Assembly (NCBI RefSeq): GCF_003334255.1
Contig: NZ_QOWU01000098.1
Reading direction: 5' to 3' (one strand)
DNA length: 7,050 nucleotides
From: Escherichia coli
GTDB taxonomy: Bacteria > Pseudomonadota > Gammaproteobacteria > Enterobacterales > Enterobacteriaceae
Positions 392-1,605 of this stretch are shown piece after piece (within the stretch, counting starts at the first letter, position 1; each line of letters starts with the position of its first letter). The notes under the pieces are model-generated. The model was not told where the DNA came from. It saw only the letters and a program-made list of their open reading frames with translations, and searched no databases. Made by a program: the position numbers and the translations under genes.

Positions 392-1605
392 ATGAAATTT
401 GAACGCCATCATGAAATATTGAAACGACTCAGTAAATTCGGTTCTGTAAAAGTATCCGATCTGTCCAATAGCCTCAATGTAACGAAAGAAACTATTCGTT
501 CAGATCTTAATGAACTTGCCAGGCTTGGCTATCTGACTCGATGTCATGGCGGTGCTTTTATCGTCCTAGACTCGCTTGATACTATTGCGAAAAATGAAAT
601 CGCTTATGCGCTTGAAAATTATGATACAGCCCAGGGAATAAAAAAAGGCCACTCAACTATGAAAAGTCAAGTATGCGTTATTGGTTCGTTTAATGTTGAT
701 ATCATCAGTTATTTGCCGAGGCTTCCCACTATCGGAGAATCGCTTCTGGCAAGTAATTTTATATTTTCACCGGGGGAAAAGGCTGTAACCAGGCGCTGGC
801 AGCAAGCTTTGCCGATACTGATGTTTATTTCATAACAAAAGTAGGTACAGATCACTTTAGTGATTATGCGATCAACTTTATGAATTCGTCTAAGATTTAT
901 AAAAGTATAATTTATCAAACGAAAGAAACGCAAACCGGAACTGCCACGATCCTTGTTAATGAAGGTACTGGCGATAATGTTATTGCGATCTATCCCGGTG
1001 CCAACATGACAATGTCGTCCGATGAAATAACTATTCAGAAAGAAGCGATTATTAATTCTGATGTCATACTTCTGCAGCTCGAAACAAATTATACCGCTCT
1101 GCAACAAGCGATCACATTGGCGCAAAAAAACAGTATCCCGGTCATTATTAACCCGGCACCCTATAATGATATCGTCAACGAACTTATTCAGGATGTTGAT
1201 TATATCACCCCCAATGAAACAGAAGCTGGTTTACTGTCCGGCATAGACGTACACGATCTTGAATCAGCTAAACGAGCTGCAGAAGCTATCCACAATAAAG
1301 GGGTAAAAAACACGGTTATCACGCTCGGTAGCAAGGGCTCGCTCGCATTTGATGGCAAAAAATTCATTCATTCGCCAGCGTTTCCAGCGGTCGTTAAAAA
1401 TACGGCAGGAGCCGGGGATGCGTTTAACGGCTCTCTGGCATCAGGACTTGCGAAAGGAAAATCACTGGAATCAGCACTGTGTTATGCCAGCGCCTTTGCA
1501 TCCCTAGCGGTGGAGACAAGCAATGCTTCCGACATGCCTGAACATGAATCTGTGATACATCGAATTCAGAGTATACATTATCAGCAAACTATTTTTACGC
1601 ATTAA
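392..1605 (+). pseudogene. DeoR-type HTH domain fused to a PfkB/ribokinase-family sugar kinase, disrupted by a -1 frameshift in a G5 run (772..776)
   Basis: N-terminus ERHHEILKRLSKFGSVKVSDLSNSLNVTKETIRSDLNELARLGYLTRCHGGA is a classic HTH_DeoR signature including the hGGA motif. From KSQVCVIGSFNVD...GESLLASNFIFSP the protein is ribokinase-like. The frame breaks at CCGGGGGAAAAGG: frame +2 (ORF 392..835) gives FSPGEKAVTRRW...*, while the frame of ORF 880..1605 gives GGKGCNQALAAS...VGTDHFSDY, restoring the ribokinase GGKGxNQA motif. The downstream part contains NPAPYNDIVNELIQDVDYITPNETEA and the PfkB signature NTAGAGDAFNGSLASG. A sixth G would restore a single ~404-aa ORF. Confidence 0.8.

Follow-up and report, generated by a model that had tools for sequence, protein, structure and literature searches.

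A very probably genuine, heritable G6-to-G5 deletion makes the ribokinase gene rikA a pseudogene in a minority of Escherichia coli

The run of five G in the rikA gene of the Escherichia coli DNA analysed here (a stretch of 7050 bases, called the window below) is very probably a real, heritable slipped-strand deletion that inactivates the gene, making it an ordinary pseudogene of a decaying accessory operon; we put the probability of this reading at about 0.93. The sequence-only reading had left the matter as an either/or between a real slipped-strand mutation and a homopolymer error, and it is now settled as a real mutation by a census of complete genomes, by the finding of the deletion on three haplotypes and by the occurrence of its product on at least 1000 contigs. 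The pseudogene itself is known, as RefSeq already annotates the frameshift; what is mildly new is only that the deletion has recurred on at least three haplotypes and that a transporter gene in the same operon has been knocked out in parallel.

Positions 761–790 of the window read atattttcac cgggggaaaa ggctgtaacc, with C771 followed by five G (772–776), four A (777–780) and then GGC (781–783). The ATG at 392 opens an ORF of 147 aa (392–835, plus strand), which reads through to NFIFSPGEKAVTRRWQQALPILMFIS* and stops at the TAA of 833–835. In this frame the codons across the run are CCG (770–772) GGG GAA AAG GCT, giving S-P-G-E-K-A, and the frame with codons counted from 772 reads GGKGCNQALAASFADTDVYFITKVG (G-G-K-G-C-N-Q-A) and stays open until the stop at 1603–1605. 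Passing from the frame of ATG 392 to that of 772 is a −1 shift, equivalent to the insertion of one G. The G5A4 run, the translations of both frames and their coordinates had all been described before, and our reading of the sequence and translation of the ORFs found them correct. The accompanying claim that one extra G would give a single ORF also holds, because intact E. coli rikA alleles read exactly CCG GGG GGA AAA GGC, with six G, and form a single ORF of 404 aa; moreover, adding one G to rikA of the window yields a protein identical, letter for letter, to public sequences on at least 1000 contigs. The RikA repaired in this way differs from intact alleles by one residue at most.

The rikA pseudogene (orthologue of STM3547; DeoR-type helix-turn-helix plus PfkB ribokinase; 404 aa if intact) thus extends over 392–1605 on the plus strand and carries a 1-bp deletion, and RefSeq lists it as 'ribokinase RikA, frameshifted'. 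The deletion lies in the G tract at 772–776 (plus strand), within codons G128/G129; the tract has six G in the intact sampled copies L003, L004 and L007 and five in L001, L002, L008, L009, L014 and L015. The upstream ORF is composed of the helix-turn-helix domain, a linker, residues 90–127 of RikA and a 20-aa out-of-frame tail (GEKAVTRRWQQALPILMFIS), the premature stop falling 20 codons past the lesion. Residues 128–404 are encoded in the −1 frame at 772–1605 (plus strand) free of any further lesion, and the first canonical start codon in that frame is ATG 880. The window therefore has no uninterrupted frame for RikA, which is broken at 772–776 and terminated at 833–835, and a one-base change of a homopolymer relative to intact alleles (G5 against G6) followed by an early stop is what a slipped-strand frameshift pseudogene presents.

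Pfam recognises two domains in the intact allele, HTH_DeoR (PF08220) at residues 5–56 and PfkB (PF00294) at residues 92–382 (E = 4e-64), and the first of these, a DeoR-like helix-turn-helix domain, is intact in the window at 404–559 (plus strand; PF08220, E = 4.9e-15). The best solved relative found with phmmer was E. coli ribokinase RbsK (1GQT, E = 7e-51). Because its scores fall below the curated RbsK cut-offs of NCBIfam (279.9 bits against 299.65 for the RbsK equivalog model TIGR02152, and 249.1 bits against 341 for NF008353), the protein is a paralogue of RbsK and not RbsK itself; RefSeq names the gene either 'PfkB family carbohydrate kinase' or 'ribokinase RikA'. It combines a PfkB domain with an N-terminal extension of about 90 residues that carries a DeoR-type helix-turn-helix, and has a methionine at position 90. 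It is directly followed by genes for a GATase-like protein, a DMT transporter and a phosphotriesterase-related protein, which reproduces the conserved order rikA–STM3548–STM3549–STM3550. By its sequence and neighbours, this E. coli gene is orthologous to Salmonella rikA (STM3547). RikA of Salmonella was described in 2026 as a true ribokinase for which D343 is essential, with PfkB signature 1 at residues 128–153, and Met90 seems to be where its in vivo form begins (PMC13432705). The corresponding ATG, the apparent start of the Salmonella protein according to the sequence and section 2.5 of PMC13432705, is at 659–661 (plus strand) in the window. Both PfkB signatures are still encoded, GGKGCNQA from 772 and GAGD at 1408–1419 (plus strand), but neither is in the frame of the start codon. 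The GGKG motif had previously been labelled the anion hole, and this is wrong. GGKG(C/A)NQA, which corresponds to RbsK G41-G42-K43...N46, is the N-terminal 'GG' motif (PfkB signature 1) that hinges the lid and binds the sugar, and the lesion at G128/G129 aligns with RbsK G41/G42. It is the C-terminal G/AXGD motif that forms the anion hole (PMC5405513, PMC12621476); in the window this motif is GAGD, signature 2, aligned with RbsK 252–255 and containing the catalytic Asp343. The mislabelled motif leaves the frameshift argument unchanged.

The rikA locus was present in 1973 of 5426 complete genomes. We typed the tract with exact 95/96-mers spanning 727–821 against 1974 complete-genome records that carry the site; a single mismatch in such a word brings identity below 99%, so that a count at 99% or above is a count of exact matches. 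This typed 1833 of the 1974 records, the other 141 carrying other variants, and six G were found in 1594 and five G in 239. Divided by haplotype, there were 187 G5 and 385 G6 records on that of the window (792G, 783C), 41 and 795 on the 792A haplotype, whose G5 records include UTI89-type strains, and 11 and 414 on the 783T haplotype, although record counts reflect clonal sampling and UTI89 alone supplies four of the 792A G5 records. All G5 records inspected for their annotation have the gene tagged 'frameshifted' by RefSeq; among the sampled G6 copies, L003, L004 and L007 are annotated as intact (WP_000667426.1 or WP_000667429.1) and L016 is a pseudogene through a separate internal stop. The 147-aa product specific to the G5 allele occurs on at least 1000 contigs (NCBI, ENA, JGI, Logan), where the sources call it a DeoR family regulator. 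Because these contigs come from several archives, they speak for a real, heritable G6-to-G5 slip and not for an assembly error. Longer tracts amount to two singletons, G7 in strain 74-2 and G8 in E29, and a search for G7 on two of the haplotypes gave no exact match. In E29 (L012) the G8 tract at rikA nt 380 is accompanied at nt 249 by the loss of one base from an A7 run (window 640–646), which suggests that its homopolymer changes are long-read assembly errors; long-read errors may also account for some of the sporadic records of G5, G7 or G8.

Every G5 allele is nested in its own SNP haplotype. In the window, 499T, 792G, 1422G and 1432T are as in the intact copy L003, and UTI89 shares 499A, 792A, 1422T and 1432G with the intact copy L004, from which it differs over 1215 nt solely by the missing G. 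From this nesting, the same G6-to-G5 deletion appears to have arisen independently on at least three haplotype backgrounds. Recombination was considered as a source of G5 in UTI89-type strains and is unlikely, as the flanking 499 and 792 markers are those of the local intact haplotype and marker 792 is only 16 nt from the run. On the 783T haplotype, strains D5 and GPEC1337 have G5 on different sub-haplotypes, which hints at a possible fourth event, though single records of this kind may be errors. Indel rates in E. coli climb exponentially with homopolymer length (PMC8510543), and a G6 run is thus an expected hot spot.

A contig scan with peptide patterns taken from a single E. coli query returned two orthologues from outside E. 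coli, one from Citrobacter and one from S. enterica diarizonae, with 81% identity to the E. coli gene. The peptide FSPGGKGCNQALAAS (FSPGGKGCNQA) is invariant in both, and is encoded by CCC GGT GGT AAA GGA in Citrobacter and by CCC GGC GGA AAA GGC in S. diarizonae. Since the G run is broken elsewhere by synonymous codons, G6 is specific to E. coli and is not a conserved signal.

The other genes of the operon and its surroundings show further damage. Downstream of rikA on the plus strand, the STM3548-like 'glutamine amidotransferase' (GATase-like) gene (1619–2377) is intact in the window, the STM3549-like DMT transporter gene (2434–3399) is a pseudogene by a TGG-to-TAG change at 3040–3042 (W203*; 'internal stop' in RefSeq), and the STM3550-like phosphotriesterase-related gene (3402–4436) is intact; NCBIfam assigned neither the GATase-like nor the DMT protein to a family. 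The amber W203* is also present in L001 and in L003, and because rikA of L003 is intact, the transporter was lost before the kinase in the haplotype of the window. UTI89 has an independent nonsense mutation in its DMT gene, Q25* (around 8277 of L008), and RefSeq re-annotates this copy from a downstream start as though it were intact. Strains 7/2, 5283 and HH45 (L001, L002, L009) carry an extra 1-bp deletion at window position 1735 that frameshifts the GATase-like gene, which the window does not have. A AATAATAATAAT repeat at and after the stop of this gene (window 2374–2388) varies in length by 3 bp (ATA): the window, L001 and L003 have the extra unit, and L004 and UTI89 lack it. Elsewhere in E. 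coli, IS1 insertions break rikA at two places, one some 30 bp ahead of the G tract and the other a little way past it (L005 5375–7366; L006 1166–2331), and further rikA lesions of other strains are Q81* and a 4-bp deletion. The nonsense change belongs to a 783T sublineage (L013, L014, L016), in which codon 81 (rikA nt 241) has changed from CAG to TAG, upstream of Met90. If RikA starts at Met90, as suggested for Salmonella (PMC13432705), Q81* would remove only the isoform fused to the helix-turn-helix and leave the kinase, and these strains would provide a natural test.

The window opens (1–75) with the terminal part of an IS110-family (ISEc45-like) element, which has inserted into a remnant of an IS66 transposase (76 to about 270); the IS110-family insertion is present in HH45 and UTI89 and absent from 7/2 (L001) and L003. 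On the minus strand downstream of the operon lie a frameshifted C-terminal fragment of a gamma-glutamyltransferase (about 4476–4768), an ISL3-family transposase pseudogene interrupted by an internal stop (about 4848–6467) and the 3′ part of a gene for a zinc-ribbon-domain protein that runs off the window (6751–7050), with an indel of 3–4 bp near 6780 relative to L003 and L004. The upstream flanks of L001 and L003 differ from those of L004 and L008: some strains have a region of cobU, an IS4 remnant and tRNA-Asn, and others have yaiO, yaiP and a PAPS-reductase gene, which indicates rearrangement or another insertion context between lineages. Taken together, the lesions across the locus fit relaxed selection on a dispensable accessory pathway.

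Were the five G of the window a homopolymer error of sequencing or assembly, the source genome would truly have six G and an intact rikA. G5/G6 miscalls are a known long-read artefact, and E29 shows that at least one public record looks like such an error. The allele of the window, however, is confined neither to single assemblies nor to one platform. At least 40 complete genomes of E. coli, from many laboratories, match positions 380–1620 at 100%, G5 included, and the exact G5 95-mer of the window recurs in 187 records; over the whole 7050 bases the best match to a complete E. coli genome was 99.8%, and none reached 100%. UTI89, a genome of the capillary-sequencing era, carries G5 as well. 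The window and other G5 genomes have linked SNPs in common, for example 1609A, that are absent from G6 relatives. Short-read-based collections are among the sources of the contigs with the G5-specific product, and one of the complete genomes that match 380–1620 at 100%, WCHEC96200 (ST405, phylogroup D), comes from an assembly polished by Pilon with Illumina reads (PMC5762679). With G5 in 239 complete-genome records and on at least 1000 contigs, the allele is inherited; on this evidence a sequencing artefact is excluded as a general explanation and would be very unlikely even for the window itself. It had also been proposed that six-G orthologues would expose the site as an assembly error. Six-G sequences are indeed found, and with 1594 records they predominate; the inference was nonetheless too simple, as a widely inherited G5 allele coexists with them. 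Programmed recoding, in which the G5A4 run would drive −1 frameshifting or transcriptional slippage to give both a 147-aa helix-turn-helix protein and a full-length kinase, is extremely unlikely. A −1 slip of tRNA-Gly on G-GGG would give exactly the wild-type SPGGKG peptide, and the upstream ORF retains an intact DeoR helix-turn-helix domain. Against this, the zero frame (UCA CCG GGG GAA AAG) offers no X-XXY-YYZ heptamer, the next 84 nt (window 777–860) fold at −18.6 kcal/mol with z = −0.68, 42 of 200 shuffles being as good, and no upstream Shine-Dalgarno-like element was seen by eye. Transcriptional slippage usually requires runs of about nine A or T. The two-frame arrangement is a minority allele of E. 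coli, most E. coli as well as the Citrobacter and Salmonella orthologues having a single ORF, and the transporter of the same operon is knocked out too. The programmed frameshift was accordingly rejected for lack of heptamer, downstream structure and conservation of the G run in Citrobacter and Salmonella, in line with the sequence-only reading, which had judged ribosomal or transcriptional slippage far less likely. A rare unprogrammed −1 slip may yield traces of full-length RikA, and nothing suggests that it is used.

A different meaning would attach to the same deletion if the G tract were a contingency or hot-spot locus, at which a recurrent and possibly reversible loss from G6 to G5 is selected, for example as a pathoadaptive change in extraintestinal lineages. 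G5 lies on at least three haplotypes, and its carriers include WCHEC96200 (ST405, phylogroup D) together with UTI89, NU14 and IHE3034-type strains; moreover, the DMT transporter is truncated separately in the ST405-type and UTI89-type lineages (W203* against Q25*), and the G5 alleles of both have no secondary lesion, so that they are recent or possibly reversible. However, a phase-variable tract of five to six G would be a short one, the longer G7 and G8 are known from two singletons only, of which at least one is suspect, the IS1 insertions, Q81* and the 4-bp deletion fit plain relaxed selection, and the record counts mirror clonal sampling, with UTI89 counted four times. Hence we regard a contingency locus as unlikely. 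It is similarly doubtful that the G6 tract repeatedly, and perhaps reversibly, shuts off a four-gene sugar pathway and that the convergent loss of kinase and transporter in UTI89- and ST405-type lineages was selected and not neutral.

For the reading that we prefer, an inherited pseudogene formed by slippage, the following history is proposed. The gene rikA is the first of a four-gene accessory operon (rikA, STM3548-like, STM3549-like DMT, STM3550-like), in which the synonymous codons CCG GGG GGA used by E. coli create a six-G run at Pro127-Gly128-Gly129, at the start of PfkB signature 1. Replication slippage probably dropped one G from this run, after which translation from either Met1 or Met90 would leave the kinase frame past Pro127 and end 20 codons on. 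The deletion has been passed on clonally in what is a young pseudogene, relaxed selection probably letting the allele persist. The product from Met1 consists of the helix-turn-helix domain, 38 kinase residues and a 20-aa nonsense tail, and that from Met90 is a peptide of 58 aa; a protein begun at ATG 880 would lack residues 90–163, and with them the GG hinge and the N-terminal portion of the site that binds the sugar. Kinase function is predicted to be lost because no protein would contain the GG hinge, the sugar-binding residues or GAGD/Asp343, and we infer this loss with high confidence. One side possibility is that the 147-aa product, reduced to its helix-turn-helix, might still act as a sensor-less DeoR-type regulator. 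The deletion stands in 239 of 1833 typed records, spread over three haplotypes or more, and two lineages have each lost the transporter independently; E. coli can therefore do without the rikA operon, which is eroding in this species. In practice, the kinase gene should be treated as a genuine pseudogene and not 'repaired' as an assembly error, with little import beyond annotation. Strains with the G5 allele lack RikA, a third ribokinase that was first described in 2026, and this is relevant when a substrate is assigned to the pathway or when the tract is used as a lineage marker.

Among the closest known systems is RikA of Salmonella enterica sv. Typhimurium (McCormick, Jabbar & Escalante-Semerena, Mol Microbiol 2026, PMC13432705), with which the gene of the window shares the DeoR helix-turn-helix extension, Met90, the PfkB domain, signature 1 at residues 128–153, the catalytic D343 and the four-gene neighbourhood. 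Unlike the Salmonella gene, the copy in the window is frameshifted at G128/G129 and unable to encode the enzyme, and the G6 run is found only in the E. coli gene. Compared with E. coli RbsK (PDB 1RKD/1GQT), the fold family and motifs are shared (GGKG(A/C)NQA corresponding to RbsK G41–N46, GAGD to RbsK 252–255), whereas the gene of the window is a paralogue that carries an additional N-terminal helix-turn-helix domain. Programmed −1 sites, such as dnaX (A-AAA-AAG) and the transposases of IS1 and IS3, also have a homopolymer at the junction of overlapping frames, but rikA has no canonical heptamer, stimulator or conservation, and most of its alleles are single ORFs. Also similar are the homopolymer slipped-strand pseudogenes in decaying accessory islands of E. 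coli and Shigella, which have in common with rikA the single-base change of a run, the premature stop, the clonal inheritance and the IS remnants and other pseudogenes nearby. Nothing essential differs between them, and the notable detail of rikA is that the same deletion is found on at least three haplotypes.
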